The translations under genes were made by a program, and so were the position numbers. From positions 3,038,001 to 3,102,000 of the forward strand of contig NC_090340.1 in the NCBI RefSeq assembly GCF_035084215.1: a DNA stretch of 64,000 nucleotides. Reading direction: 5' to 3'. Below, in pieces: positions 15,726 to 59,278 of this stretch (positions are counted from its first letter, which is position 1; each line of letters starts with the position of its first letter). Source of the stretch: Heptranchias perlo. Its lineage: Eukaryota. The notes beneath the pieces were generated by a model, which was not told the origin of the DNA, did no database searches, and saw only the letters and a program-made list of their open reading frames with translations.

Positions 15726-15800
15726 TTCTTAATTATTCAGTCTCGGGATCCGGGTTTTGTTGGCAAAGCTGATATTTATTGCCCATCCTAATAGTTGCAA
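15726..15800 (-). mobile_element. 3' tail fragment of the tRNA-headed LINE/SINE family
   Basis: TTTATTGCCCATCCTAAT matches the reverse complement of the 3' end at ~30410-30428. Confidence 0.55.
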
Positions 15801-16016
15801 ATCAATATCCACTTATATGATAGTGTCACCAGAGAGCTCTAACAATAAGACCCATCCTTTGTCTGCGTTGCATACTGTGATCTGGCACATGCGCACATGT
15901 GCGTTCCTTCCAGATTCCAAATGATAAGGATTCTGGTGGGTGCAGGTCAATTATAGACCAACAAGCTATTTAATTTCAGGTTACATACATGAATCTAAAG
16001 ATTCTATTTATCACAG

Positions 16017-16192
16017 GGAGATTGACCAAGGTTCTATCACTACTCCGATATTATGAAATGTTGAACCATTATATGGCCCAACGGTCTAGAATTACCTTTC
16101 ATAGACGCAACGCGGAACTTAGAACCGAAAATGTGTACATTCTCATCCTCATTCTTGGCGTTACGCTTCATATTACTGCCAATCTCATTTGA
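16017..16192 (+). pseudogene. Candidate stalk/transmembrane exon of gene A
   Basis: Acceptor tttatcacag| at 16016, phase 1, compatible with the C1 donor. Reads GRLTKV...TENVYILILILGVTLHITANLI* with a hydrophobic C-terminal run. The 3' boundary is not defined. Confidence 0.4.
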
Positions 16193-16304
16193 ATGCGCTC
16201 GACCGTAAAGTGGGAGGAAATCATCATAAACAATCGGGGCCCAAGGAAAACACCGAGCTGACACGTATGAAAGTTAAGGTTTCAACTCATTCAACCAACA
16301 ACAA

Positions 16305-16376
16305 TCCTTCATTGTACGTAAATGCTTTGGGACGTCCCGCGGTCCTGAAAGGCGCTATACAAATACAAGTTATTTC
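16305..16376 (+). mobile_element. L2/DeuSINE-type 3' tail fragment
   Basis: GCTTTGGGACGTCC...GAAAGGCGCTATACAAATACAAG, an L2-type 3' terminus. Confidence 0.6.
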
Positions 16377-16944
16377 AGTCTCCTTTATTGATGAACATTA
16401 AGAAGTGTGTTTAAGCACCGGCAATCGGGGAAACTTAGCAATTTTTAATGTGACTTCTATTTATGCTACAAAATGCCGGTCGCAATAAGCATACATGAAA
16501 TAAAAAGCTCTGAAAATTGCAATAAAACACCAGAAAAATGATTGTTTCCCGCTGCGCCTCAAAAACTGATAGCGATTGTAAAAGCGCCCCTGGGCAAGCG
16601 TAATTGCAGGAACCTTGCGTATCAGTCTCAGTCAACTGGAATTGGAGCCATAATTATGGTCGGAGATATCTTCAGTGGGAGGTATCGAAAGACAGCCGTA
16701 AAAGATTGAGGAGATGTTGGAGTATTGTAGTTTGACACATTACTCACTTTTGCTCAAAATTCTGCGATCTTTTGAGCTCCTAATTGGTTCGCGATCAGGC
16801 TACGCATGTCTGTAGGCATCAAATACAGAGGCAATTCAAGCTGTCAACTGTAGCTTCGACAGAAACCTGTAACAAATAGCGTAAACGGCCTTTACGCGAA
16901 TCTTCCACGCAAATTACGCCAATTTTTGTACTGCGTTCATTACT

Positions 16945-17372
16945 CCGCTGTGGTACTTGTATCATGAGTCAGAAGGTCGTGCATTAAAGCACCTCTGCAG
17001 AAGCTGATCCTAAAATGTAAGCTGATGCTCACGTACATTGTCCCAGGTACCGTGGTTCGGATGAGACGAAAGACGAATGCTCCCTACTCTTGATCAAATG
17101 CACATAGAAGATACCACGACAAGATTATAAAAAGAGCAGGCGAGTTCTCCTAATTTGCTGGGCCTACTCTGATACTTCAGCCAACAGCAACAACACAGAT
17201 TAGCGGTAATTTATGTCATTGTTATTTGCGCGACCATGTTGTGCACACATTTGATGCCATATTTCCCTATATAGAAATAGTATCTATGTTATAGAAATAC
17301 TTCATTTGCTATGAAACGCTTCGGGATATCCAGAGTATGTCGACGCCTGTATGTAAATGCATTTTCTTCTTC
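16945..17372 (+). mobile_element. DeuSINE-like SINE (tRNA head, Deu-type core, L2-type tail), degraded
   Basis: GAGTCAGAAGGTCGTG head; core GGATGAGACG...GAGCAGGCGAGTTCTCC...CACAGATTA...TCATTG...TGTGCACA; tail GAAACGCTTCGGGAT...TGTAAATGCA. Recognised from memory of the family, not by search. Confidence 0.6.
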
Positions 17373-18569
17373 ATCTGCCGCTCTACACTTCGCTGCGCCG
17401 AAGATTAACTTGTAGAGGTGCCAATCGAAACGATCACCTTCCCCTTGTTTTGGGGGGCATATTTATATAACAGATTATCTATGTAAGAACGTATTGATTT
17501 GTTTGTTTTATTGATTCCTTAATGTTTCGATTTAACTGTCATATGGGAGGGACTACATTTATTTGTCCAGTTGTTGCACCCTACAACCTATTGATTTGGG
17601 TGCCTCAATCTATTGATTTATATTTTAACCACGAACAAGGCAACGCGTAATCTATTAGTTTTATTAATATTTATGAAATAATTTCACACCAAACTGCAAC
17701 TTGAATGATTGAATATAAAACATTCTACATTCTGAATGTATCACATTCAATGAAGGAGGGTGTAATTTATCTGAATAACAGAAATCGATAAATTCGCAAT
17801 ATGCGTAAAACCTATGTTCTTGGAAACTCAATCGTTGCCGAGGGTCGGCGCTAACTTGCAAAATATTAAAAATTGAAGTTCATTCGTTTCTCAGCTGTTT
17901 ACCATTTCCTAATCCAGTGGCTCGCGGTTATTAATCCCTGGCGAGCGTTATATCGCAGAAAGAAACAATAAACGTCATTAACTTCTACAGAACTAATAAT
18001 AATGTCAATGCGACTATGCTGCCTGAATTGGCTATTAGATGTAAAAACTTCATGACTTTTGAAACTCCAGAAAAAAGTAACTTAATGAATGCTAGACATT
18101 GACTTTCTAGAAAGAACGAGTGTCAGCTGAGGAGAAGCTGACATACGTTGCTCTGGATCTGATCGGCTATCAGAAAACTGTCAAATCAGAACAGCAGGAA
18201 GAGCGAACAGTGTGTGCAGAGGTACAGGTGGGTTCACACGGGGTAATAATAATCATGCAAATGAGAATAAATTTGGTTTTGAGATGATTCTGAGAATTAA
18301 TTTGACTTAATTTTCAATTCGTTTTTTGAAGAAAAATTACAATACTATTCTCAATGTTTGTTTTACAGACCAAACAGATCGCCGCTGATAGCGAACTGAG
18401 TACGCTACTTTAAATTTGACTGGTTCCAAGAAAAAAATCGAAATCTCAACAGAAAGAAACAAGTCTAGTATACAGAGCGGTGAAGACCAGCATCTAATTG
18501 AGGCAAACATGCATGCATTGAAAAGATTCGAGGGATGTTTCAGTAACAGATGCATTTACGTTGCTTGTG

Positions 18570-25817: not shown

Positions 25818-26981
25818 CGATAAAGTCCCTCACAGGAGACTGGTCAAGAAGGTACGAGCCCATGGAATCCAGGGTGCCTTGGCACTTTGGATACAAAACT
25901 GGCTTAGTGGCAGAAGGCAGAGGGTGATGGTCGAAGGTTGTTTTTGTGACTGGAAGCCTGTGGCCAGTGGGGTACCACAGGGATCGGTGCTGGGTCCCTT
26001 GCTGTTTGTGGTCTACATTAACGACTTGGATATGAATGTAAAAGGTATGATCAGTAAGTTCGCTGATGATACAAAGATTGGTAGGGTGGTAAATAGCGAG
26101 GAGGATAGCCTCAGTCTGCAGGACGATATAGATGGGTTGGTCAGATGGGCGGAACAGTGGCAAATGGAATTTAACCCGGAAAAGTGCGAGGTGATGCACT
26201 TTGGAGGGACTAACAAGGCAAGGGAATACACAATGAATGGGAGGACCCGAGGCAAGACAGAGGGTCAGAGGGATCTTGGTGTGCAAGTTCACAGATCCCT
26301 GAAGGCGGCGGAACAGGTAGATAAGGTGGTAAAGAAGGCATATGGGATACTTGCCTTTATTAGCCGAGGCATAGAATATAAGAGCAAGGAGGTTATGATG
26401 GAGCTGTATAAAACACTGGTTAGGCCACAGCTGGAGTACTGTGTGCAGTTCTGGTCGCCGCACTACAGGAAGGATGTGATCGCTTTGGAGAGGGTGCAGA
26501 GGAGATTCACCAGGATGTTACCAGGGCTGGAGCGCTTCAGCTATGAAGAGAGAATGGGAAGATTGGGTTTGTTTTCCTTGGAGCAGAGGAGGCTGAGGGG
26601 GGACATGATTGAGGTGTACAAAATTATGAGGGGCACAGATAGGATGGATACTAAGGAGCTTTTTCCCTTCGTTGAGGGTTCTATAACAAGGGGGCATAGA
26701 TTCAAGGTAAAAGGCGGGAGGTTTAGAGGGGATTTGAGAAAGAACTTTTTCACCCAGAGGGTGGTTGGAGTCTGGAACTCACTGCCTGAAAGGGTTGTGG
26801 AGGCAGGAACCCTCACAACATTCAAGAAGCATTTGGATGAGCACTTGAAATGCCATAGCATACAAGGCTACGGACCAAATGCTGGAATATGGGATTCGAG
26901 CAGACAGGGCTGATGGCCGGCGCGGACACGATGGGCCGAAGGGCCTCTATCCGTGCTGTATAACTCTATGACTCTATGACT
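25818..26981 (+). mobile_element. CR1 LINE (second subfamily), 5'-truncated, open RT C-terminal half
   Basis: DKVPH...GVPQGSVLGP...FADD...LEYCVQFW...FFTQRVV to stop 26913; (CTATGACT)n tail. The ORF segment 25657-25817 is read-in from flanking DNA. Confidence 0.95.
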
Positions 26982-27141
26982 GTACGTTGGAGGACTTTCT
27001 GGCAGGAATATTTCTTTGTAAAAGTCCTTCATGAAAACCTAGAATGATTAGTTGTCGACGAACGTCTCTCGTTTTTGGAAGCATCAGCTGAAGCATAACG
27101 GCTTTGCAGATCTTTCAGTGGCCCAATCCACTGCATTCTAC

Positions 27142-27228
27142 GGTACGGTAGCATAGTGGTTATGTTACTGGGCTAGTAATCCAGAGGCCTGGAATAAAAT
27201 CCAGAGTCATGAGTTCAAATCCCGCCAC
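27142..27228 (+). promoter_or_regulatory. tRNA-derived internal RNA Pol III promoter (A box + B box)
   Basis: A box TAGCATAGTGG at 27149-27159 within a D-arm (GCAT...ATGT). Anticodon arm CTGGG-CTAGTAA-TCCAG (AGT, Thr-like). Second stem-loop CTGGA-ATAAAA-TCCAG. B box GAGTTCAAATCC at 27211-27222. Confidence 0.8.
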
Positions 27229-30200
27229 GGCAGCTGGCGAATTTAAATTCAATTAATTAATTAAAAAATTCAATTAATTAAATAAAAATCTGGAATTAAT
27301 ATACTAGTATCAGTAATGATGGCCATGAAACTACCGGATTGTCGTGAAAACCCATCTGGTTCACTAATGTCCTTCAGGGAAGGAAACCTGCCGTCCTTAC
27401 CTGGTCTGGCCGATATGTGACTCCAGACCCACAGCAATGTGGTTGATTCTTAATTGCCCTCTGAAATGGCCGAGCAAGCCACTCAGTTGTAAAATCTCGC
27501 TACGAAAAGTCATAATAAGAATAAAACCGGACGGACCACCTGGCATCGGACCACTAGGCACCGGACACGACAACGGCAAAACACCAAGCCCAGTCGACCC
27601 TGCAATGTCCTCCTTACAAACATCTGGGGACTTGTGCCAAAATTGGGAGAGCTGTCCCACAGACTAGTCAAGCAACAGCCTGACATAGCCATACTCACAG
27701 AATCATATCTGTCAGCCAACGTCCCAGACTCTTCCATCACCATCCCTGGGTATGTCCTGTCCCACCGGCAGGACAGACCCACCAGAGGTGGCGGTACAGT
27801 GATATACAGTCAGGAGGGAGTGGCCCTGGGAGTCCTCAACATTGACTCTGGACCCCATGAAATCTCATGGCATCAGGTCAAACATGGGCAAGGAAACCTC
27901 CTGCTGATTACCACCTACCGTCCTCCCTCAGCTGATGAATCAGTCCTCCTCCATGTTGAACACCACTTGGAGGAAGCACTGAGGGTAGCAAGGGCAAAAA
28001 ATATACTCTGGGTGGGGGACTTCAATGTCCATCACCAAGAGTGGCTCGGTAGCACCACTACTGACCGAGCTGGCCGAGTCCTGAAGGACATAGCTGCTAG
28101 ACTGGGCCTGCGGCAGGTGGTGAGCGAACCCACACGAGGGAAAAACTTACTTGACCTCGTCCTCACCAATCTACCTGTCGCAAATGCATCTGTCTATGAC
28201 AGTATTGGTAGGAGTGACCACCGCACAGTCCTCGTGGAGATGAAATCCCGTCTTCGCACTGAGGACACCATCCAACGTGTTGTGTGGCACTACCACCGTG
28301 CTAAATGGGATAGATTCAGAACAGATCTAGCAGCTCAAAACTGGGCATCCATGAGGCGCTGTGGGCCATCAGCAGCAGTAGAATTGTATTCCAGCACAAT
28401 CCGTAACCTCATGGCTCGGCATATTCCTCACTCTACCATGACCAACAAGCCAGGGGATCAACCCTGGTTCAATGAGGAGTGTAGAAGAGCATGCCAGGAG
28501 TAGCACCAGGCGTACCTAAAAATGAGGTGCCAACCTGGTGAAGCTACAACTCAGGACTAAATGCATGCCAAACAGCGGAAGCAACATGCTATAGACAGAG
28601 CTAAGCGATTCCACAACCAACGGATCAGATCAAAGCTCTGCAGTCCTGCCACATCCAGTCGTGAATGGTGGTGGACAATTAAACAACTAACGGGAGGAGG
28701 AGGCTCTGCAAACATCCCCATTCTCAATGATGGCGGAGTCCAGCACGTGAGTGCAAAAGACAAGGCTGAAGCGTTTGCAACCATCTTCAGCCAGAAGTGC
28801 CGAGTGGATAATCCATCTCAGCCTCCTCCCGATATCCCCACCATCACGGAAACCAGTCTTCGGCCAATTCGTTTCACTCCACGTGATATCAAGAAACGGC
28901 TCAGTGCACTGGATACAGCAAAGGCTATGGGCCCTAACAACATCCCAGCTGTAGTGCTGAAGACTTGTGCTCCAGAACGAGCTGCGCCTCTAGCCAAGCT
29001 GTTCCAGTACAGCTACAACACTGGCATCCAACCGACAATGTGGAAAATTGCCCAGGTATGACCTGTCCACAAAAAGCAGGACAAATCCAATTCGGCCAAT
29101 TACCGCCCCATCAGTCTCCTCTCAATCATCAGCAAAGTGATGGAAGGTGTCGTCGACAGTGCTATCAAGCGGCACTTACTCACCAATAACCTGCTCACCG
29201 ATGCTCAGTTTGGGTTCCGCCAGGACCACTCGGCTCCAGACCTCATTACAGCCTTGGTCCAAACATGGACAAAAGAGCTGAATTCCAGAGGTGAGGTGAG
29301 AGTGACTGCCCTTGACATCAAGGCAGCATTTGACCGAGTGTGGCACCAAGGAGCCCTAGTAAAATTTAAGTCAATGGGAATCAGGGGGAAAACTCTCCAG
29401 TGGCTGGAGTCATACCTCGCACAAAGGAAGATGGTAATGGTTGTTGGAGGCCAAGCATCTCAGCCCCAGGGCATTGCTGCAGGAGTTCCTCAGGGCAGTG
29501 TCCTAGGCCCAACCATCTTCAGCTGCTTCATCAATGACATTCCCTCCATCATAAGGTCAGAAATGGGGATGTTCGCTGATGACTGCACAGTGTTCAGTTC
29601 CATTCGCAACCCCTCAGATAATGAAGCAGTCCGAGCCCGCATGCAGCAAGACCTGGACAACATCCAGGCATGGGCTGATAAGTGGCAAGTAACATTCGCG
29701 CCAGATAAGTGCCAGGCAATGTCCATCTCCAACAAGAGAGAGTCTAACCACCTCCCCTTGACATTCAACGGCATTACCATCGCCAAATCCCCCACCATCA
29801 ACATCCTGGGGGTCACCATTGACCAGAAACTGAACTGGACCAGCCATATAAATACTGTGGCTACGAGAGCAGGTCAGAGGTTGGGTATTCTGCGGCGAGT
29901 GACTCACCTCCTGACTCCCCAAAGCCTTTCCACCATCTACAAGGCACAAGTCAGGAGTGTGATGGAATACTCTCCACTTGCCTGGATGAGTGCAGCTCCT
30001 ACAACACTCAAGAAGCTCGACACCATCCAAGATAAAGCAGCCCGCTTGATTGGCACCCCATCCACCACCCTAAACATTCACTCCCTTCACCACCGGCGCA
30101 CTGTGGCTGCAGTGTGCACCATCCACAGGATGCACTGCAGCAACTCGCCAAGGCTTCTTCGACAGCACCTCCCAAACCCGCGACCTCTACCACCTAGAAG

Positions 30201-30478
30201 GACAAGGGCAGCAGGCGCATGGGAACAACACCACCTGCACGTTCCCCTCCAAGTCACACACCATCCCGACTTGGAAATATATCGCCGTTCCTTCATTGTC
30301 GCTGGGTCAAAATCCTGGAACTCCCTTCCTAACAGCACTGTGGGAGAACCGTCACCACACGGACTGCAGCGGTTCAAGAAGGCGGCTCACCACCAACTTC
30401 TCAAGGGCAATTAGGGATGGGCAATAAATGCCGGCCTTGCCAGCGACGCCCACATCCCGTGAACGAATAAAAAAAAAT
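27142..30478 (+). mobile_element. Full-length single-ORF non-LTR retrotransposon (CR1/L2-group EN-RT) with a tRNA-derived 5' head
   Basis: tRNA-like 5' end, ~320-nt leader, then one reading frame to TAG 30414: EN (TNIWGL, LTESYL, YRPP, GDFN, LDL, SDH) and RT (QFGFR, DIKAAFD, GVPQGSVLGP, FADD). No frameshifts; in-frame stops at 27490, 28501, 28558 and 29059. 3' UTR ends GAACGAATAAAAAAAAA. No ORF1. Confidence 0.93.
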
Positions 30479-30734
30479 TAAAAAAATTCTGTTTGGTGTT
30501 GCCTTTCACTGAAGGAAAGTAAAAAGAAACACTATTTTTGGAAGTGTCAATGATGCACAGATTGTTGTCCTCAATCTCAACTTCAATTCCCTGGGCATGC
30601 AACGTGCATTAACTGTTGTTGCAACACGAATCAATGTATTAACTAGCATAACTAGTTAGAAATGTACTTTACTACGAATGGCTCCACGTGAACGTCTCCA
30701 TAAACTGAAAGCTGAATGGGAGCAAGCGGCTAAA

Positions 30735-32970
30735 AAGTTCTCAAGTGACAGTGGCTAGGGGACAGAAAGCAGAGAATAGATGTGAACGGTTGTTTTTCAC
30801 ACTGGAGTAACGTATACAGTGGTGTTACCCAGGGGTCTGTATTAAGTCCACTGTGCCTTTTTGATATATAATAATGACCTAGAATTGGGTGTAGAGGGCA
30901 TAATTTCAAAGTTTGCAGATTACGCGAAACTAGGAAATAATATGGAGGATAGTAACAAACTTCAGGAGGACATGGCCATGCTGGTGAATTGGGCAGACAC
31001 ATGGCAGATAAAATTTAATGCAGAGAATTGTGAAGTGATACATTTTGGTAGGAAGAATGAGGAGAGGAAAAATAAACTAAATGATACAATTTGAAAGGGG
31101 GTGCAGGAAGAGAGAGAGACCTGGGGGCACCAATACACAAATCTTTGAAGGTGGAAGTGCAAGTTGAGATGGCTGTTTAAAAACATTTGGGATCTTGGGC
31201 TTTATAAACGCAGGCATCGAGTACAAAAGCAAACAAGTTATTCTAAACCTTTATAAAACACTGACTAGGCCTCAGCTGGAATATTGCGTTCAATTCTGGG
31301 CATCACACTTTATGAAGGATATACAGGCCTTGGAGAGGGTGCAGAAGAGATTTACTAGAATGGTAACAGGATGAGGGACTTCAGTTATGTGGAGGGACTG
31401 GAGGAGCTAGGGTTGACATCCTTAGAGCAGAGAAGGTTAAGTGAGATTTGATAGAGGTGTTCAAAATGATGAACGGTTTTGATAGAAGAAATAAGGAGAA
31501 ACTTTTTCCAGTGGCAGAGGCGTTGGTAACCAGAGGGCACATATTTAAGGTGTTTGGCAAAAGTGCCCGAGGAGGTATGAGGAAAATTTTGTTTCAAAAC
31601 GTTTTTTTTTATTCGTTCATGGGTTGTGGGCATCACTGGCAAGGCCAGCATTTATTGTCCATCGCTAATTACCCTTGAGAATGTGGTGGTGAGCCGGCTG
31701 CTTGAACCACTGCAGTCCGTGTTGTGAAGGTTCTCTCACAGTGCTGTTAGGTAGGGAGGTCCAGGATTTTGACCCAGCTACAATGAAGGAACAGTGATAT
31801 AATTCCAAGTCGGGATCGTGTGTGACTTGGACGGGGACGTGTAGGTTGTATTGTTCCCATGTGCCTGCTGCCCTTGTCCTTCGACGTGGTAGAGGTCGCG
31901 TGTTTGGGAAGTGCTGTCGAAGAAGCCTTGGCGATTTGCTACAGCGTGTCCTGTGGATGGTACACACTGCAGCCGCAGTGCGCCGGTGGCGTAGGGTGGT
32001 CGATGCGGTGCTAATCAATCGGGCTGCTTTATCCTGGATGGTGTCGAGTTTCTTTAATGTTGTTGGAGCTGCACTCATCCAGGCAAGTGGAGAGTATTCC
32101 ATCACACTCCTGACTTGTGCCTTGTAGATGGTGGAAAGGCTTTGGGGAGTCAGGAGGTGAGTCACTTGCCGCAGAATACCACAGCCTCTGACCTGCGCTT
32201 GTAGCCACATATTTATGTGGCTGGTCCAGTTATGTTCCTGGACAATGGTTACCCCCAGGATGTTGATGGTGGGGGACTCGGCGATGGTAATGCCGTTGAA
32301 TGTCAAGGGGAGGTGGCCAAACTCTCTCTTGTTGGAGATGGTCATTGCCTGGCACTTGTCTGCCACGAATGTTACTTGCCACTTATGAGCCCAAGCCTGG
32401 ATGTTATCCAGGTCTTGCTGCATGCGGGCACTGACTGTTTCATTATCTGAGGGGTTGTGAATGGAAATGAACACTGTGCAATCATCAGCAAACATCCCCA
32501 TATCTGACATTATGATGGAGGAAAGTTCATTGATGAAGCGGCCGAAGATGGTTGGGCCTAGGACACTCCCCTGAGGAACTCCTGCCGCAACGTCCTGGGG
32601 CTGAGATAATTGGCCTCCAACAACGACTACCATTCTTCCTTTGCGCTAGGTATGACTCTAGATACAGGAGAATTTTCCGTCTGATCCCCATTGACTTCAA
32701 TTTTACTAGGGCTCCTTGGTGCCACATTTGGTCAAATGCTTCCTTGACGTCAATTGCGTGTTGTAATGTTCTGGAATTTTGAACCTGAAAGGTAGTGGAA
32801 AAAGTTTCAATGATAACGTTCAAAATGGTATTAGATAAATACTTGAAGCGAAACAAAATTACAGGGCTATTGGGAAAGAGCAGGCAATGGGAAAAATTAG
32901 ATTGCTCTTCCAAAGGGCCGGCACAGGCATGATTTGCTGAATGGCCACCTCGTATGCTGTACCTGCTATG
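30735..32970 (+). mobile_element. Older CR1 3' half, split by a nested insertion at ~31602-32753
   Basis: RT fragments 30861-31094 and 31448-31590. The CR1 3' end resumes at ~32755 (GTTGTAATGTTCTGGAAT...GGCCACCT). Confidence 0.85.
31602..32753 (-). mobile_element. 5'-truncated copy of the tRNA-headed LINE family
   Basis: ORF 31665..32633(-) is highly similar to 29137..30414; same 3' UTR and poly(A). Confidence 0.95.
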
Positions 32971-34414: not shown

Positions 34415-36795
34415 ATTTTTTAAGTCATTCATGAGATGTGGGCTTCGCTGGAAAGGCCAGCATTTATTGTCGATCTCTAATTGCCCTTGAGAAGGTGGTG
34501 GTGAGCCGCTTTCTTGAACTGCTGCAGTCCGTGTGGTGAAGGTTCTCCCACAGTACTGTTAGGCAGGGAGTTCCAGGATTTTGACCCAGCGACGATGAAG
34601 GAACCGTATATATATTTAAAGTCGGGATGGTGTGTGACTTGGAGGGGAATGTGCAGGTGGTGTTGTTCCCACGTGCCTGCTGCCCATGTCCTTCTAGGTG
34701 GTAGATGTCGTGGGTTTGGGAGGTGCTGTCGCAGCTGCCTTGGCGAGTTGATGCAGTGCATCCTGTGGATGGTACACACTGCAGCCACGGTGAGCCGGTG
34801 GTGGAAGGAGTGAATGTTTACTGTGGTGGATGGGGTTCCAATTAAGCCGGCTGCTTTGTCCTGGATGGTGTCGAGCTTCTTGAGTGTTGTTGGAGCTGCT
34901 CTCATCCAGGCAAGTGGAGAGTATTCCATCACACTCCTGATTTGTGCCTTATAGATGGTGGAAAGGCTTTGGGGAGTCAGGAGCTGAGTTTCTCGCCGCA
35001 GAATACCCAGCTTTTGACCTGCTCTTGTAGCCACAGTATTTATGTGGCTGATCCAGTTAAGTTTCTGATCAATGGTGACCCCCCAGGATGTTGATGGTGG
35101 GGGATTCGGCGATGGTAATGCCGTTGAATGTCAGTGGGAGGTGGTTAGACTGTCTCTTGTTGGAGATGGTCATTGCTTGGCACTTGTTTGGCTCGAAAGT
35201 TACTTGCCACTTATCAACCCAGGCCTGGATGTTGTCCGGATCTTGCTGCATGTGGGCACGGACTGCTTCATCATCTGAGGAGTTGCGAATGGAACTGAGC
35301 ACTGTGCAATCATCAGCGAACATCCCCATTTCTGACCTTGTGATGGACGGAAGGTCAATGATGGAGCGGCAAATGATGGTCCGGCCGAGGACACTGCCTT
35401 GAGGAACTCCTGCAGCAATGTCCTGGGGCTGAGATGATTGGCCTCCAACAACCACTACCATCTACTTTTGTGCTACTTATGACTCCAGCCACAGGAGAGT
35501 TTTTCCCCTGATTCCCATTGACTTCAGTTTTGCTCGGGCTCCAACTAAAACACTCGATCAAATGCTGGCTTGATGTCAAGGGCAGTCACTCTCCCCTCAC
35601 CTCTGGAATTCAGCTCGTTTGTCCATGTTTGGACCAAGGCTGTAATGAGGTCTGGAGCCGAGTGGCCCTGGCGGAACCGAAACTGAGCATGAGTGAGCAG
35701 GTTATTGGTGAGTAAGCGCCGCTTGGTAGCACTGGTGACGACACCTTATATCACTTTGCTGATGATTGAGAGAAGACTGATGGAGCAGTAATTGGCCGGA
35801 TTGGATTTGTCCTGCTTTTTGTGGACAGGACATGCCTGGGCATTTTTCCAGATTGTCGGTTAAATGCCAGTGTTGTAGCTGTACTGGAACAGTTCGGCTA
35901 GAGTCGCGGCTAGTTCTGAAGCACAAGTCTTCAGCACTACAGCCGGGATGTTTTCGGGGACAATAGCCTTTGTTGTATCCAGTGCACTCTTGATATCACG
36001 TGCATTGATTCGAATTGGCTGAAGATTGGCTTCTGTGATGTTGGGGATATCAGGAGGAGGCCGAAATGGATCATCCATTCGGCACTTCTGGCTGAAGATG
36101 GTTGCAAACGCTTCAGCCTTGCCTTTTGCACTAACGTGCTGGACTCCACCATCATTGAGGATCGGGATGTTTACAGAGCCTCCTCCTCCAGTTAGTTGTT
36201 CAACTGTCCACCACCTTCACGATTGGATGTGATAGTACTGCAGAGCTTGGACCTGATTCGTTGGTTGTGGAATCGCTTCGCTCTGTCTATAGCATGTTGC
36301 TTCCGCTGTTTATCATGCACGTAGTCTTGTTATGTAACTTCACCAGGTTGGCACCTAATTTTTGGGTACGCCTGGTGCTTCTCCTGGCATGCTCTTCTAC
36401 ACTCCTCATTGAACCAGGGTTGATTCCCTGGCATTATGGTAATGGTAGAGTGAGGATTATGCCAGGACATGAGGTTACAGATTGTGCTGGAATACAAATC
36501 TGCTGCTGATGATTGCCACAGCGCCTCATGGATGCCCTGTTTTGAGCTGCTAGATCTGTCCTGAATCAATCCCATTTAGCACTGTGGCAGTGCCACACAA
36601 CACGTTGGATGGTGTCCCCGGTGCAAAGACGGGACTTCGTATCCACGAGGATTGTGTGGTGGTCGCTCCAACCAATACTGGCATGGACAGATGCGTCTGC
36701 GACAGGTAGATTGGTGAGGACAACGTCAATTCGGTTTTTCCTTCCTGTTGGTTCGCTCACCATCTGCCTCAGGCACAGTCTGGCAGCTGTATCCT
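34415..36795 (-). mobile_element. Older 5'-truncated copy of the tRNA-headed LINE family
   Basis: Minus ORFs 34477-35034, 35069-35461, 35860-36078 and 36330-36763 match the EN/RT of 27142-30478. Confidence 0.95.
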
Positions 36796-39620: not shown

Positions 39621-40767
39621 ATTTAATACATTACATGGACTTTGACACATTCGTCCATTAGTTTCAAAAATGAATGCCGATGCTCTAAGGAGTCTGGGAA
39701 AGGCCACATGCAAAGAGCTGCACATGTTGATTGAAGCATTACTGTTTACCATAACATCAAAGTTTTAACGTTTTTAGTGTCAGTTTAAATCGTGCGCAAA
39801 GTGAGAACACGCTCCACTGTGGAAGATACATTAACAGTTAATTGCCAGGTCATGGTCTATTTTCGACGGACTTGGAGCTGTTTCCCCTCGGAGTCACGCA
39901 CCATATGGACTTCACGTATTGACATGTTTTAATTGAAAATATGTAGCATTATCTCACAACTGTCTGCATTAACCTCCCACAAAAGCACAAGTAGATCCAA
40001 ATTTAAATTGTTATCCCTCGGTAAGCAACTAAACAAACGATCCCTCTAGAAATCACTTCCCCCGCTCCCTCTCTCTCTCTTGCACTCTACTTTCCGTATC
40101 TCCTTTCATTGCAAACTCTTTTACCTTCCGCTGGCATTTCACACCTTCCTATTCTAAAACACTTTTCGGAATTTCTTTCGAGGATGTCGTTTTACACTGG
40201 TACATTCTTAACCGCGAGGACGTATAAAGACTTCAGTTCTTGATCTCAGATTATTGAAAGTCACTAATTTAAGCCGATTTTCTACATTTTTTCTGTCTGT
40301 TCGTTCAACAAAACTGTGGTTTGTAAATTTCCTTAGTCGCATGAGTAGAACGGAAACACTGCACGTTGTAGGCGGAGCACACATTCGGCGCAGCCACGTC
40401 CATCAGACGGATGGCATTCAGCATAAATATGTTGCACCCTGACAACTCAATGCAACAGCTGTCTGATCCGAGTATCTGCAACGCTCAACTCAGGCATGGG
40501 TTTAGTTCTGGTTCGGAATGCCGTGTTTCAGTATTGTGCCACGCTGGGGATTTTCTGCACATGTATTCGACCGATTTCTCTGGAGCAGAGAATTGCCATC
40601 AATTATACAACGTTCATATTTCTCTATGTTCTGTTTTATTGATCACGTTTTAAATTGTTTCCTTTACTTTGGGCTATTCTGCTTGTCTTTGTTTTGTTCT
40701 GTTATTAATTGTTGGAGTTATTTTGTGTTTGAAGTAAATATTGTGCTACTGTATCTAATTCCTACAG

Positions 40768-41079
40768 GTGCCCTGGATGTTTCTGGGAAAGTCCCTGCAT
40801 CTGTAACGGCGAACAGGGGTGAGAACGTAATCTTACACGGCAACGTATCTGGATTACAAAAGAATGAGCACATGAATGTTTACTGGAGTACGAGCGATTC
40901 GCATCAAACCGGAACATTAAAGACTGACAACCGCGTAATAACTCGTGTTCTACCGAATGGAACATTTTTCCTTCATCTGCACAATGTGAGTTTCCAGGAC
41001 TCTGGAGCCTATCGTTGTAGAGTGAGAGTTGGGAAAAACAATTATGTTGATGGATGCGGCACAGAACTAATTGTATGTG
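40768..41079 (+). CDS. Ig-superfamily gene B: germline-joined V(J) domain exon
   Basis: cctacag|G ALDVSGKVPASVTANRGENVILHGNVSG...NVYW...FFLHLHNVSFQDSGAYRCRVRVGKNNYVDGCGTELIVC-G|GTAAGT. V-set W, DSGxYxC and the J-like GxGTxLxV are in one open exon with phase 1/1 junctions. The B-strand Cys codon is GGC (40839). Confidence 0.9.
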
Positions 41080-41979
41080 GTAAGTGGCGTTCCATAAAAA
41101 CCTAAATGTCGTTTATGTACTGATGACATCATGGAAGATAACAGGATGGCGAGATGGACGGATAGATGGATAGATAGATATTTAAAAATATTGCTTAACA
41201 GAGCTGACGGTTCAACTCTAGGAGCATTACGCATCTTCCGTAATAACACTCTATACAGATTGAAATCATCCCAGCTTCTATCTAGTAAATTAAATGAATA
41301 TTTATAGATGAGAGTTCTCCATGAAAAGCTTAAATAAGTAATAAGTTATTTAATTTTCGGGTTTTCCGCTGCTCTTCCGCCGGATTAAAATCGGATGAGC
41401 GGCAGAATCCCCCAAAAACCTCTCAGCGGACCATCCACAGCACAACATACGCTGGCAATTCGAGTTCAAAGGCAACCTGGCCAAATGAGATAGACGCCAC
41501 CCAATATAACACACGCACTGAAAACAAATCAATCAAAGAATGGTAACGGCAATCAACGCAGTTTGATCGGTGTGAAAGTCGCCTTAGGCGTCAGCACAAC
41601 ACGGAGGTCAGCATCGGCAACTGGTCACTTTCCTTTTGACTACAATTGGTTGGAAAATCGGGCGAGAGATTTTGCGCTTTCGCGCTTCCGCCAAAGTCGA
41701 CCCGTGAGTGGAAGTCAATGGGAAAGGAAATTCAGCGGGTGATCCGCTGCTGTCAGTCTTTGTCCCTCTAGGATTGGATTTCACCTAATAATGCTGGTTT
41801 CAAATAAATGCGCCCTATCGTATCCAGTTACTGCCTCCCACTCATTGGTGAATGAAATCAAAATGTTGCTCCAGAACTCACTTCGGTAAATTTTCAACTT
41901 GCCGCCAGAACGTAAAACCGGAATTGGCAATGGTCCGCCTTTTATAGAATCTCACCCCCGTTGAAATTGACCCCGATGA

Positions 41980-43788: not shown

Positions 43789-44512
43789 GACAAACAGACT
43801 CTATAATGTAAAGCTATTTTCGGAAGTGGTTTGCATCGCACTTAGAACCGTTAATTCGTCTTTTTGGTGAATGAAATCATAAAATTGTTGCAGAACTCAT
43901 ATGAGTAAATTTTAAACATGCCGCCAGGGCCCAAACCTGGCATTGCACGCGATCCGTCTGTTCTGGAAACCGCCCGAATTTACTTTCCATTGAAATCAAA
44001 ACGAACCATTATCCAGTTTGGTCCGGTGTACATATATATCCTCTCCGTGAGATTTTTGTCCTCAAGACTACTGCTCTAAGTTGGTGTTGGCATTTCGCTC
44101 ACCTTAGTTAACATTTTTTCAGCTGTAATTGTGAAGGACCAACTGATATTCCCATGGGTTCTCACCGTCTGTTCGGGCAACTTCGGGCAGAGACCGGCGG
44201 AACCAAAGCAAAACGGATACTTAGGGGTTTCTCTTGGTCTCCCGCAGACACTGCGCAGCCTCGTGGAATTTCACGGCGCAGACGACAGTAGTAATGGGGG
44301 AATTTAACTAACCTGATCTAAATTGAGAGAACTTGAAAAAGGACAATGTCGATATATGTAGAGCAGACAAAATGAGGAATGTTGTTTGCTGTGTAGGAGA
44401 CTGTACACAACTTCAAAATAATACAGATCGGTTGCAATATTGGTTAGGATCAAGTCAGTTTAATGTGGAGATATATGAGTTAATGCTTTTGGGAAGGACG
44501 AATGAGATCGAA

Positions 44513-44914
44513 TGCAATAGTTATCTTAGTCGTCTAGTAATCCAGAGGTGTCGACTAATAATCCAGAGAATATGAGTTCGAACCTCACTTTAGCAGTTTG
44601 AAATTATTAGTTCAGTTTTAAAAACATGGAAATAAGAAGCTGGTATGAGTGGATTGCCGTGAAACTCTACTGATGCACGAAAGTGCGTTATGGAATGAAA
44701 TCTGCCATCCTTACTCGGTCTGGCCAATTATGTGAATCTGGTCTCACACTAACGTGGTTGAATCTCAATTGCGCTCTGAAGTAGATTAGAAAGACAAGCG
44801 GTTGCAGGAAACCGCTACAAAGTTGGCCCACAAACTCAGTCTCCGGGCAATTATGGATGGCCAATAAATGATGGCCCTGCCTGTGAAGCACACATCCCGA
44901 GAATGAATTAAAAA
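44513..44914 (+). mobile_element. tRNA-derived SINE sharing both the 5' ~370 nt and the 3' ~90 nt with the LINE at 27142-30478
   Basis: CTAGTAATCCAGAGG...TAATCCAGAG...GAGTTCGAACC head; TGCCATCCTTACTCGGTCTGGCC...GTGGTTGA...CTCTGAA...CGCTAC body; GGGCAATTATGGATGGCCAATAAATG...CACATCCCGAGAATGAATTAAAAA tail. Confidence 0.85.
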
Positions 44915-46070
44915 CAAATCATAGGCAAAAATATTGAAGGAATTAAAGAGCAGGTCGATTTAGGAGTTTGGGTTCGCAATTTTAAAAGATGGCAAGAGGA
45001 ATCGGCAAAGCTTTAAAAACAATCTAATTGAATGGACTCCAGCGGAGAGTCGCCTGGTCCACGCCGTAACTCTGGCTGGAGACTGGCTGAAGTTCTCGAG
45101 AAACGTTCTGCATGTCAGCAGCCGGCCGGTTATACGGTTTCACTGCCTGTGCCCTGCGCGAAACGGATCATAGCCCCTGCGGATTTTTAGGGCCCTAGAT
45201 TTTATATAATGGAGCATACGGATAAAGACAATGATATTGCTAAACCTATACATATCATTTGGCAAACTCCAGTTAGACAACTGTGCACAGCATTAGGGGT
45301 ATTACTTTGGGAAAGATGTCAACTATACTGAGTGGATCCAAAAGATTTTCACTGACATTGGATGAAGACTGAAAAGCTTTAGTTATGGGAATAGACGACA
45401 GAAATTGGGACATTATTCCCGAAATCAGTGAAAGTTAAGAGACCTGAATGAAAGTCACCAGTAATCGATCCCGCTGAATTTCAGTGCCATTATTTCGACG
45501 GAGTATTTTCCAGGGCGGCTTGGTCAGGAATTGGGCTCATTTGGAAATCAGCGAGATGCTGTAAAGGGAGCACAGTTCAACTAGTATTCCAGAGGGTAAT
45601 ATCTAATAGACAGCAGAGCTTTTCTCATTCGAACATGTTTTTTGGACCATGCGATATTTTATTTGGAGTGAAGATTCATCAACAGCTGACTGAAAGGCCC
45701 TTCTCCAATCAAAACAAAAGTTCCTTACAAGCCCCCAAAATCGATTTTAAACATCAAGCAAATCTAGTTGTGTTCTGTGAAAGTTTTGAGCAGGGAATTA
45801 CTACGCAGCAGAATAATTTTTTTTTGTCTATCAGACATTTTGTTTATAAAATAGCATGAACCCATGAACCGTATCTTGCGTTTAATCATTGTTGCTATAA
45901 CATATTGGCAATATAAACATCAACGTTACGTAATGTCCGTTTTAATGTGATCCTAGCTGAGCGTGGTCCTATTTAAATAATTGTTGACTTCCTTGCTGCT
46001 GTTTGGCTCCAAGTCCACTTTGGTTGAAAATTAATTTCACAATAACATTTTATTTGTATTTTATCAACAG

Positions 46071-46375
46071 TTCCTCCGACGCCTTTGCAGATTTCCTTCA
46101 CTGTGTTTAAAATGGGTCATCGACTGCTTTGACTCTTTTGTGTGAAACAGCTGCGTTTTTCCCGGAAAAGCTGAACATCAGTTGGTATAAAAATGGATCC
46201 GAAATTCTGAGCGGTATGGAACGAATCAAAGACCGGAACCTAGCGGGACTGTATGAAGTTTCCAGTTATCTCAGTGAACCAGGTCCGTTGCAGAGTGGAA
46301 CTAATTACACCTGTCAGGTATCACACGTCTCTCTCCAGACTGGAGCCAGCGTTCATTACATTTCTCAAATTTCAG
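46071..46375 (+). CDS. Ig-superfamily gene B: C1-set domain exon (1-nt frameshift near 46109-46112)
   Basis: ttatcaacag|V PPTPLQISFTVFK / NGSSTALTLLCETAAFFPEKLNISWYKNG...GLYEVSSYL...NYTCQVSHVSLQTGASVHYISQIS-G|GTAAA. Canonical C1 motifs and phase 1/1 junctions. The entry frame hits TGA at 46130 unless one base is added (e.g. to the AAAA run). Confidence 0.88.
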
Positions 46376-47444
46376 GTAAATTTTCAAGTTTAAAAGCTGC
46401 TATGTATAATTCCAACATGCAGAAAAAATGTTTTATAAGAGTTGACAATTTTCCCCGCCTTTCAAGAAATTGTTGATTTTGCTGAGATCCGTCTCCATAG
46501 ACTGCCGGACTCATGTTGTGCTTCGTGAGTTGCTACTCTTTATGTGAGAGTTTAAAGGGTTTCGGGAGATCATTACAGCAATAGCCAAATCTATCTCCGC
46601 CATTCAGTTTACAGCAAGGACATTTGTACAGTGATCTGGAGAATGGCACTTGTTTTATTGTCCCTTTCTCCAGCCCAGGTGGCGGTCGGTTTTCCCGCCC
46701 CAATAAATTGATGAGGACTTACTGGAAATGCATAAACTGACACTTTCTGGCCTGTTTGGCTCTTAAATCAAGCAGAAATTCTACAAATCTTTAGACGCAA
46801 TACTTCTCCCCATCCTCCCGGGAATTCCAGACCTTACCGTCTGGAAGTTCGGGGGCGATTTTAGCCTTTGTCAGGGGTTTGGGGGGTTCTCTTCCGAGTT
46901 TAAAGGGTGGCGAACACGACAACCTTGAGCTAAAATTCTGTCCTTATGTATTCAGACCTTTGCCAGATGCTGTCTTCACCGACCAGGCCTTGCATGAATC
47001 TAGGTTTAGTAGTTAAATCGTTCGGTTTACCGGCAGCATTCTTTAAGGCTGGTAACAGCTTTATTACTTTGTATAAATTTCATTATTTTCCGAAATGAGG
47101 TAGAAGTTTCGGTTACATAGAAACATTTCCTTTAATTATGGTCAACCATATCTCAGAATTACAGCATGTCAATCAAATGCTTTTGTGAAGAAAATGCAAT
47201 AGCCGCACTCATGTTTTGTATTATATCTCGATTCTCCGAGCTTCAAGTGTTACACATTGACAATATTGTTGTGCGCAATTCGAAAAACGCCGGTTAATGA
47301 ACACTTCCGTCATCAATACGTTTAATTAAGCTCGCGGGAATACACTGTCAGAAGACTGAAACCTTTCACCATCACTGATACAAATCGAAACAATGCAACT
47401 TAATCACATAGGGTAAAGAAAAGTTATGACTAACAGTGATTGAG

Positions 47445-56559: not shown

Positions 56560-59278
56560 GCAAGCTCGAAGAACAGCAACTGATTTTTGTACGAACACAT
56601 GAAGCACTATCAGGACCTGCTCTCCTCTGCCAGAACTGCTCAAAACACCAGGCTCATCCTGGAATGCAAAGATGACTCCCGGCATCTCTGTTCCACTACC
56701 AACTGTCTTCATAAGCCCATCTCCCCCGCACCCTCCTCCCTCACCTCCAACACGTGCGAGGAGCTTATTGACTTTTATGTCACTAAGATTATGAACATCC
56801 GTTCAATTGACTGTGCTGCTTCCCCCCATTCCCCCCGGCAACCCAGCAAAACTTCACCCAACGATTCTCCCTGCCCTAGCCCTGAACACGCATCATTCTT
56901 TAGTTTTTCTCCTGTCTCCCTTCATGACATCTCCGACCTCATCTTGCCCACGAGACCCAACTCCTGCTCCTGCAACCCCATTCCCACCAAACTACTGACC
57001 ACCCAACTTTCTTTCCTGACCCCCATGCCATCTGATATTTCTAACTGTTCATCGCCTCAGTTTCTGTACCCCACCCTTTAAAATCTTCCGTCATTAATAC
57101 CTCATCCAAAAACCTACCCTTGATCCACACTGATGCTGCAAACTATTGACTCATCTCCAAACTCCCTTTTCTCTCCAACGTCCTTGAACGTGTTGCACCT
57201 CCCAAATCCATGCCCATTTTTCCCCGGACTCCATGCTTGATTCTCTCCAATCGGGTTTCCACCCCGGCCACAGCGCTGAAATGGCCAGTATATAATTCAC
57301 AGGTTACATCCTATGTAACTGTGACTGTGATTCACTCTCCATCCTCGTTCTTCTCGATCTATCTGGAGCCTTTATCATGATTGAGCCCATCATCCATCTC
57401 CAATATCTTCCCTCCGTTGTCCACCTCACCCTGATTCATTCTTATCTGTCCAGTCACAGCCAGAGATTCTCCTATAATGGCTTCTCTTGCTACTCCCACA
57501 CCGTTGCATCTGGAGACGACCACGGATATTTACTTGCCCCCCTCCGAGTTCTCACCGACTTGATGGCACGTGGTGATATCATCCGAAACTACAATGCCAC
57601 ATTCCATAAGTACTCTGATGACACCCAGCTCTACTTCATCACCGCCTCTCTCGACATCTTCACTTTAGCTGATTTCCCATGCTGCTTGTCCGTCACCCAG
57701 CATTGGATGTGCAGTAATTTCCTCAAATTAAGTATTAGGAAGAGAGAAGCCATTTGTGGGAGATGGTTGGGGTGCGGGGTGGTTGTTGTGAGGGAGGTGG
57801 GGGTGATGGTAAAATATCAGGATGGAGCAACCCGACCCCAACCCACTCTATTCCCACCCCTTTAAAGTTTATGATACAGAATTTATGCCATTGACAAGGC
57901 TCTGGCAAAAGGCGGCCAGGGTCATAATTAATATTCCAAAGTCACGGCTGGCTGACATCATAGGCTCCACGACTTAAATTTAACTGGAAATGCGAGGGAG
58001 GCCCGAGCTGTCGGCTGCGTGCTGCTAATCCGAGGTGCGGGCTGCACGGTCACGGGGGTAAGTTCTTTCCGCTCACCCACCCACTGGTCCCGAAATCCAG
58101 CCTCCCGCCGGCCACGATTTCCATCCTCTCACTGGCCCCCATTTCGAGCCTCCACTGGCCCTGATCTCTTCCCTCCCACGGCCTCGAACTCCAACCTCCA
58201 CCTGGCCGCGACCTCCAGCCTCTCGCTTTCCCAATCGAGGCCCGGAACTTCGGCTCGCATCCAGGTTCTGTGGAAAACCCACACGGATCGATGGCTGCGG
58301 CATCCCGCAAACAAACTTGATTCCCGCTTGCTGGACAGGCTGTCAACTTGGCACGCTCAACAACATGCTAATGAGGCACTGCTATTAAGGTCGGCAGGGC
58401 ATCCACGTCACCGGCCTTGCTGGGTTCTCACCCCAAAGGGGGTCCACGCCCTCCGCCCCCGCCCCTCCCCCCACCGCAAAAGCATCCCCAGATTCGCATT
58501 AATATTGGTCCTGCTACAAACGCCGTTCCCGAGTCACCGACTCTCGGGCCACACTTTGGGGTTTAACCAAACTATTTGTATCCTCGTTGTCCTATTTGAC
58601 CCTAATTGGAGTTTCCGACCTCATATCCTCTCCATCACCAACACTGTCTACTTCCTAATCAGTAATATTGCAGCTCTCTGCTGCTGCCTCAGCCCTTCTG
58701 CTGTTGAGCCCCTTATCCATGCTTTTGTTACTTCTAGTTTGGACTATTCCAATGCTCTCCTGGATGGTCTGAAACCTTCCACCTCTTCAGCTCATACGAA
58801 ACTCCGCTCCCCGTATACTAACCCGTTCACCAATCACACCTGGACATTCTGAACTTTCTTGACCCCCATCTTGCAATGCCTCCAATTTAAAGTCCGCATC
58901 CTTGTGTTCAAATCGCTCCATTGCCTCGCTCCTCCCAATCTCTGTAACCTTCCCCAGCACTATAAACCTCCGCGATTTCTGTGCTTCTCCAATTCTTGCC
59001 TCTTGCGCAACCCCGATTTTCCTCACCTCAACATTTGCGGCTTGCCTTTAGCTGTGCAAGTCCTAATTTCTGCAATTCCCTCCCGAAACCTGTCCATCTC
59101 TTTATCTGCCTCTCCTTCTTCAAAGCGCTACTTAAAATCTATCCCTTGATCCCACCTTTTAGTCACCTGCCCGAATATCTATGGCTCGGTTTATTTTTTT
59201 TTCTGTAAACGCTCCTGTGAAGCGCCTGGGGACGATTAACTAAGTTAATGGCGCTGTCTAAAGCAGGTTATTGTTGTT
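56560..59278 (+). mobile_element. L2 LINE, degraded, with a GC-rich insertion at ~57750-58510
   Basis: SCSCNPIPTKLL, FHKYSDDTQLY, LIHAFVTSSLDYSNALL (L2 hallmark) and QFKVRILVFKSLH; L2 tail GTGAAGCGCCTGGG...GGCGCT...GTTATTGTTG. Confidence 0.85.

Follow-up and report, generated by a model that had tools for sequence, protein, structure and literature searches.

The short element and its partner LINE

The window analysed here is a stretch of 64,000 nucleotides of Heptranchias perlo (contig NC_090340.1, positions 3,038,001 to 3,102,000), rich in CR1-type LINEs and containing immunoglobulin-domain exons. Ig V-set (40506-41105) and C1-set (46111-46476) exons, both on the + strand, flank the element under study; it lies in sense between the V-set exon at ~40.8-41.1 kb and the C1-set exon at ~46.1-46.4 kb, probably in an intron of these Ig-domain exons. 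The element is 415 bases long and non-coding. Its features and those of its partner LINE are collected in Table 1, in which the boxes follow the general A- and B-box consensus.

Table 1. Features of the short element, its partner LINE and other copies of the LINE family in the window.
Feature	Position	Strand	Basis
Short element: tRNA-like head, body and first LINE ORF codons, then last codons and LINE 3' end; decayed	44503..44917	+	BLASTN, alignment, profile match
Short-element head	44503..44600	+	alignment to LINE; assumed box consensus
Decayed A-box position, short element	44510-44520	+	4/11 bases as in LINE
Tandem duplicated anticodon arm, short element	44529-44547 / 44550-44568	+	score 31 vs shuffle maximum 21
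B-box-type motif, short element	44576-44584	+	assumed box consensus
Body, homologous to LINE 5' UTR 27236-27465	44601..44780	+	BLASTN, alignment
TTTT in short-element body, absent from LINE	44616-44619	+	sequence
Remnant of first 14 LINE ORF codons (LINE 27466-27507)	44781..44822	+	ungapped, 24/41 bases match
Junction, LINE 27509 to 30382	44820..44823	+	AAG microhomology
Tail: last 11 ORF codons (LINE 30382-30414), 3' UTR, short A-rich end	44823..44917	+	alignment
AATAAA of short element	44863-44868	+	columns invariant in 5/5 window tails
Partner LINE, full length, single endonuclease and reverse transcriptase ORF, no sense-strand TTTT	27143..30477	+	alignment, ORF analysis
LINE head	27143..27235	+	weak Rfam tRNA match, boxes
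LINE A box	27149-27159	+	assumed box consensus
LINE duplicated anticodon arm	27168-27188 / 27189-27208	+	score 21 vs shuffle maximum 21.5
LINE B box	27213-27222	+	assumed box consensus
LINE ORF from inferred start codon	27466..30414	+	start inferred from P0185 and P0010
5'-truncated LINE copy	31602..32753	-	89% identity (BLASTN)
5'-truncated LINE copy	34416..36795	-	89% identity (BLASTN)
Old tail remnant of LINE family	15726..15788	-	BLASTN E 2e-7

When the query 44500-44930 was compared with the window by BLASTN, three colinear, same-strand matches to the LINE were obtained: a head block (44520-44617 against LINE 27159-27254; 70%, E 1e-9), a body block (44651-44821 against 27336-27506; 72%, E 2e-26) and a tail block (44820-44917 against 30379-30477; 76%, E 3e-16). 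Aligned identity was 66/92 (72%) in the head, 126/171 (74%) in the body and 68/83 (82%) in the tail (LINE 30382-30468), and the corresponding local alignment scores (88.5, 169.5 and 112) exceeded the maxima of 1000 shuffles each (41, 52.5 and 40.5). The first-pass annotation had proposed that head, body and tail are all shared with the LINE; the three blocks bear this out, and the 5' homology is significant by formal alignment. Its element of ~400 bp also stands, with revised limits: a profile match (44504-44821) puts the start near 44503 instead of 44513, and the end lies at 44917. The short element does not, however, equal the LINE ends, as had been stated, because the two differ by 18-28% and by gaps, including one of 21 bases against LINE ~27315-27335 and others in an AT-rich stretch. 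With a K2P distance to the LINE of 0.21-0.36, compared with 86-91% identity between LINE copies, the short element is older than the LINE copies of the window.

No target-site duplication above chance was found for the short element or for the LINE (one 6-mer each). A profile search detected only one full short copy inside the window. A second candidate (15726-16100, - strand) consists of a tail of the family and, upstream of it and at the distance to be expected, a possible very old head and body; this 5' part was insignificant, its score being reached by 80 of 500 shuffles.

The short element gave no Rfam tRNA match of its own and no tRNA with ARAGORN; over the whole window, Rfam produced 0 matches at E up to 1 and ARAGORN produced 0. 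The LINE head has an Rfam tRNA match of 19.3 bits (E 0.22), which does not reach the gathering score of 29, and its anticodon position reads AGT (AGU, Thr). A tandem duplication of the anticodon arm is common to both heads, and its presence in both points to one origin. Six pieces of head, body and tail were folded and none was better than its shuffles (z +0.09 to -1.62); on this basis we propose neither an IRES-like nor a ribozyme-like structure. The decayed A box and the TTTT of the body indicate that the present copy is dead.

The ORF of the partner LINE is interrupted by in-frame stops (27490, 28501, 28560 and 29061). At the last three of these, a different letter stands in most contigs of each of the four sequencing runs described below; 27490 is not among the 40 listed of 921 places. 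The LINE reverse transcriptase (RT) is 28% identical to that of the CR1-type LINE of the window, and the nearest named full-length relative is from Branchiostoma (43%). Shark-labelled proteins are 67-92% identical to the endonuclease region, and no intact full-length shark protein was found among 8000 candidates scored (best, 47%). Pieces of the ORF are also present in the annotated shark host proteins P0124, P0127, P0132 and P0133, as either gene-model errors or exonised copies.

Searches in viral contigs, GTDB genomes and plasmids yielded no related loci, and 80 were found in metagenomes. The latter are remotely related (28-48%), and the 5' end is possibly missing from many of them. None of the 80 contains a tRNA or a match to the LINE head or body, and a B-box pattern is absent upstream of all 38 with an ORF >700 codons, the pattern being strict enough to miss the boxes of both window elements. 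By eye, two distant single-ORF relatives have in common a conserved 5' UTR motif of ~40 bases (L002, 171-216; L003, 391-424 and 449-488), which occurs twice in L003 and is not a tRNA.

Head, T-runs and 3' ends of the LINE family

Contigs of four of the 21 listed sequencing runs (X1, X13, X6 and X14, representing three coded organisms) were aligned to 26950-30650 at likeness 80. Loose 5' ends before 27142 were detected in 589 (X1), 566 (X13) and 785 (X6) contigs, with unlike flanks (agreement 0.33-0.34). Among the 24 listed of 16,965 loose-end rows, three are at 27142 and none puts a 5' end at the boundary with the ORF. In three DNA runs, with >90 contigs each, depth and variant columns carry on across the head-ORF boundary. 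At 27541, beyond the junction of the short element, the four runs reach depths of 1.7 million, 9.5 thousand, 221 thousand and 33 thousand; the corresponding values for the right flank are 58, 0, 1.9 and 1.9, depth being no copy number. Record 17 of X14, which spans 27473-27778, is a different copy (31 other letters, 18 gaps).

Two proteins labelled as Rhincodon typus (whale shark) gene models bear on the same boundary. The N-terminus of P0185 is the peptide encoded from the ATG at 27466, and the protein continues into the endonuclease. In P0142, a body-encoded peptide (27367-27396) is joined to the endonuclease, possibly as the result of a predicted splice or of a deletion. Given the contig 5' ends at 27142, the continuous depth and the whale-shark proteins, the tRNA-like head is the 5' end of the LINE family in more than one species. 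That the head is integral to the family, as the first-pass annotation held, is thus supported by contigs and proteins; the short element, which had been offered as independent support, contributes little, since a SINE-LINE chimera would look alike.

Contigs in which the body at 27347 is joined to other upstream sequence were also detected (311 in X1 and 355 in X6; median 86-101 letters, low agreement). They possibly represent a variant with another or a gapped head.

The sense strand of the LINE is poor in T-runs. No TTTT is found in 3335 bases (4.4 expected, P 0.012), TTT runs number 7 compared with 21.8 expected (P 0.0002), and there is no T-V-TTT variant; runs of A, C and G are near expectation. 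On neither strand does the window contain a longer stretch free of TTTT than 27072-30534, which coincides with the LINE. TTT is at or above expectation in 6/6 CR1- and L2-type controls of the window. A decayed LINE at 56584-58852 (+), which we presume to be L2-like, has a normal T-run content and served as a control. For the LINE ORF the TTT ratio is 0.34, compared with 0.77-1.69 among related loci (the 51, of 80, whose ORF exceeds 500 codons), which come from other, mostly AT-rich hosts. A synonymous-codon shuffle (P 0.068), Markov tests of order 1 and 2 (P 0.14 and 0.63) and a Phe codon test (P 0.15) were insignificant, partly because they absorb the depletion of TT. T-run depletion in the two truncated LINE copies alone was insignificant as well (P 0.16-0.32). 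The absence of TTTT is a hint that the LINE promoter may be of the Pol III type.

At the other end of the LINE, two types of 3' end were distinguished at 30458-30477: in the first, seen in part of the family (loose ends behind 30458 in 399, 27 and 378 contigs), a T-run precedes the A tail, and in the second it is absent. The short element resembles the former but has TT only.

The junction and the origin of the short element

In the short element, LINE sequence ending at 27509 is followed by LINE sequence starting at 30382, which is the place given by the first-pass annotation. The 2872 bases skipped (27510 to 30381) are not a multiple of 3, and the reading frame is broken at the junction. Because AAG stands on both sides (LINE 27507-27509 and 30379-30381), the position of the junction can slide by up to 3 bases.

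Judged from the sequence, LINE coding sequence lies on either side of the junction. On the left, the remnant of the first 14 codons has lost its start codon and has a stop at codon 3, and its final three codons give A-T-K, which is also the LINE reading. The 14-residue LINE peptide from 27466 has 7/14 positions in common with P0185 and 6/14 with P0010, a relative at 44% RT identity to the LINE, while 78 of the 85 proteins compared (those starting with Met and showing the endonuclease motif) share ≤3 positions with it; this N-terminal match leans on one distant protein and on a basic, low-complexity leader. A-T-K or A-R-N stands at the aligned N-terminal place in P0008, which starts later, and in P0140 and P0290, which are without Met at the ORF start; P0185 is out of the window frame after residue 8. 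On the right, the kept tail begins 11 codons ahead of the ORF stop, and the C-terminus there is conserved in distant relatives.

Joints of comparable type were found in the contigs. Among the 15 listed of 10,971 joints, six lead from body to tail (27383 to 30404, 27491 to 30404, 27409 to 30416, 27453 to 30356, 27461 to 30411 and 27494 to 30412), one is in the head and eight are inside the ORF, the latter indicating that internal deletion is common in the LINE family. The joint 27491 to 30404 appears in all four runs (27, 5, 13 and 15 contigs); a single contig of X1, with a depth of 5706 compared with 58 in the flank, contains 27461 to 30411. A further table (12 listed of 665) adds 27486 to 30374 and 27491 to 30363 (X14). 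For most joints the letters between are not known, and with sides of 19-66 letters at likeness 80 other repeats can intrude. Compared with the first full ORF bin, the body bin has 1.3, 6.6, 2.7 and 3.7 times the depth in the four runs, a difference to be taken as a hint only. There clearly are short forms made of head, body and tail, and their breakpoints are several and partly non-nested; the short element likely belongs to an amplified short form.

Neither the 15 listed of 10,971 joints nor the 12 listed of 665 include the exact junction 27509/30382. The closest listed joint is 27491 to 30363, seen in X14 only, with 29 letters between; these resemble 44810-44822 of the short element, and so does the consensus built from the 544 loose ends that X6 has behind 27491. 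The left breakpoint of this joint is seemingly that of the short element; the right one is not. By this likeness, the left end of the short element appears to be a state present in other copies, although the contigs concerned may be older LINE copies. The first-pass annotation had asked whether the junction is one that many SINE copies have; body-to-tail joints were found in 4/4 runs, the exact junction not among the joints listed.

Two directions had been left open by that annotation, namely deletion of the ORF from a LINE and capture of an ORF by a SINE. The former is now favoured because ORF coding sequence is kept from both ends and several body-to-tail joints exist. We consider it fairly probable that the short element is a SINE-shaped internal-deletion derivative of the tRNA-headed LINE. 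What has been observed of this model is the colinearity, the head as an integral part of the LINE, the coding remnants on both sides and the joints in three organisms. As to mechanism, LINE RNA would be reverse-transcribed from the tail, and the ORF would be dropped, most likely when the LINE reverse transcriptase jumped on its template at a short microhomology. The product would keep promoter and recognition tail and might be copied in trans by the LINE enzyme via the common 3' tail. Since the parent LINE already starts with a tRNA-derived A/B-box head, one internal deletion would give a complete SINE (promoter, body and tail) in a single step. The short form would have arisen more than once in the LINE family, and the present copy would be an old, dead descendant of an amplified master and not a single event. 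Deletion derivatives of LINEs are known (PMC5786205). Points against the deletion model are the absence of the exact junction from the joints listed, the single full short copy in the window, the lack of a target-site duplication and the greater divergence of the short element, which also fits an older independent SINE.

Such a SINE may have come first. An ancient tRNA-Thr SINE would have used the tail of a headless LINE ancestor, and a template switch would then have set its head and body before the ORF, the short element being a copy of that SINE. We regard this sequence of events as unlikely, though worth weighing. The head must be acquired at some stage, and the metagenome loci have neither tRNA nor head or body (80 loci) nor B-box pattern (38 loci); these relatives are distant, however, and many are possibly without 5' ends. 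The short element is the most diverged member in the window, and its states at 27197 (an insertion) and 27224, minor in X1, are commoner in X13 and X6. Addition of a head to bipartite LINE derivatives by template switch is, in addition, a published model (PMC5786205). Against a SINE ancestor stands the coding sequence that flanks the junction on both sides, although coding remnants could be present too in a SINE that had itself been built from a bipartite (5' + 3') LINE derivative by addition of a head. Furthermore, several non-nested body-to-tail joints and many ORF-internal ones demand repeated LINE deletion anyway. The lack of tRNA, head and body likeness in the 80 distant metagenome loci argues, weakly, that the head was probably acquired at some stage, perhaps from a SINE. 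Both directions are compatible: all observations agree with a SINE-to-LINE fusion early on and repeated deletions from LINE to SINE thereafter.

A different proposal is that a single LINE insertion lost its middle at or after integration and was never copied, in which case the short forms of the runs would be unrelated to it. The 3-base microhomology is typical of single events, the short element has several gaps of its own, the window has no second significant copy, and the exact junction is not among the listed joints. Near-equivalent head/body-to-tail forms are present, however, in all four runs, one of their joints reaches the depth cited above, and depth is greater in the body than at the ORF start; we rate a one-off event as quite improbable. 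Lastly, a truncated LINE landing in or behind a SINE copy, which would leave the short element an ordinary SINE with the tail alone in common, is largely refuted and hardly credible. In its favour, both truncated LINE copies of the window are without a head; against it, depth and variants are continuous across the head-ORF boundary in the three DNA runs, another copy (X14 record 17) bridges it and the whale-shark proteins join body and endonuclease.

The preferred reading, internal deletion of the LINE, can be combined with the T-run data. The LINE might then be a protein-coding Pol III retrotransposon, and the short element might exemplify a SINE born by a new route, with its head, body and tail all derived from the LINE. 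This wider interpretation is tentative, and we hold it with more doubt than confidence.

Comparison with known SINEs and LINE derivatives

Textbook SINEs are assembled from unrelated parts, and only their tail is common with a LINE. A SINE that amounts to a LINE minus its ORF provides a directly testable case for where SINE bodies originate, a question described as open in the available text of PMC5786205. LINEs are regarded as Pol II transcripts and SINE length as Pol III-limited (PMC10886601, text available in part). If the Pol III reading is true, the LINE RNA would be a natural long protein-coding Pol III transcript, and its translation without the usual cap would need explaining.

The short element has three properties of SINE2 families: it is short and non-coding, its tail is that of a partner LINE and its head is tRNA-derived, homologous to the LINE head, with the B box kept and the A box decayed. 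Among SINEs of this kind, the DeuSINEs SacSINE1 and LmeSINE1 are likewise tRNA-headed, have ~460 bases and a tail common with a LINE, and occur in cartilaginous fish, where they are abundant. They differ in that they carry a Deu domain and that only their tail is common with L2-2_CM, the short element having neither (PMC5499810, available text). Membership in SacSINE1/Deu was rejected: two short Deu motifs taken from the PMC7245038 supplement found no match in either element at ≤2 mismatches, and alignments to a Deu-like copy at 16930-17390 scored 42 and 33.5, below the shuffle means of 48.6 and 43.5. An L2-type tail was also discarded, as the tail scored 22 and 23, at shuffle level, against the Deu-like copy and the end of the L2-like element. 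The old Deu-like SINE copy (~16945-17375, +), with one Deu motif at 17058, is unrelated to the short element, and its own tail is similar to the remnant of a tail at 16303-16384 (score 45; maximum of the shuffles, 36.5).

HE1, a V-SINE of sharks and rays with HER1 as partner, combines a tRNA head with a LINE-common tail, as the short element does, but it is defined by the V domain and by tail-only sharing (PMC3747384, in the text available). By eye, the short element does not resemble bivalve V-SINE1 bodies or the printed Meta and UCON3 rows, and BLASTN gave no match between its tail and the CR1-type copies of the window. The T+ SINEs of mammals (B2, Dip and Ves) end in AATAAA, a T-run and an A tail, as part of the LINE family does; according to the available text of PMC8466645 they are found in mammals only, are L1-driven and non-coding, while the short element ends with TT only.

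A LINE that includes tRNA-like sequence has parallels, because RTE-1_DAn and LINEs related to it contain such sequence and hence match SINE2 families, although the passage on them gives neither its position nor a function and mentions no deletion derivative (PMC5786205). A shark LINE with a tRNA head, or a short derivative of one, was not found in the literature searched, Repbase, Dfam and subscription papers being outside the search, and the family may already be curated in repeat databases.

A close likeness is to bipartite non-autonomous LINEs, which consist of 5' and 3' parts of one LINE with the middle deleted and have the tail in common with it; the short element likewise has the 5' and 3' ends of one LINE, and its middle is gone. 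Bipartite LINE derivatives, or SINEs built on them, include Bov-A/Bov-tA, WALLSI, CoeSINE4/5 and SINE1-1_EBu, and the available texts of PMC5786205 and PMC7245038 report bipartite derivatives only for RTE, Ingi, Vingi and R2, and SINE bodies only from RTE and Vingi. In bipartite-derived SINEs of the Bov-tA type, a small-RNA head absent from the LINE was added later. The short element departs from this pattern: its head is already in the LINE, and no second, head-adding step is needed.
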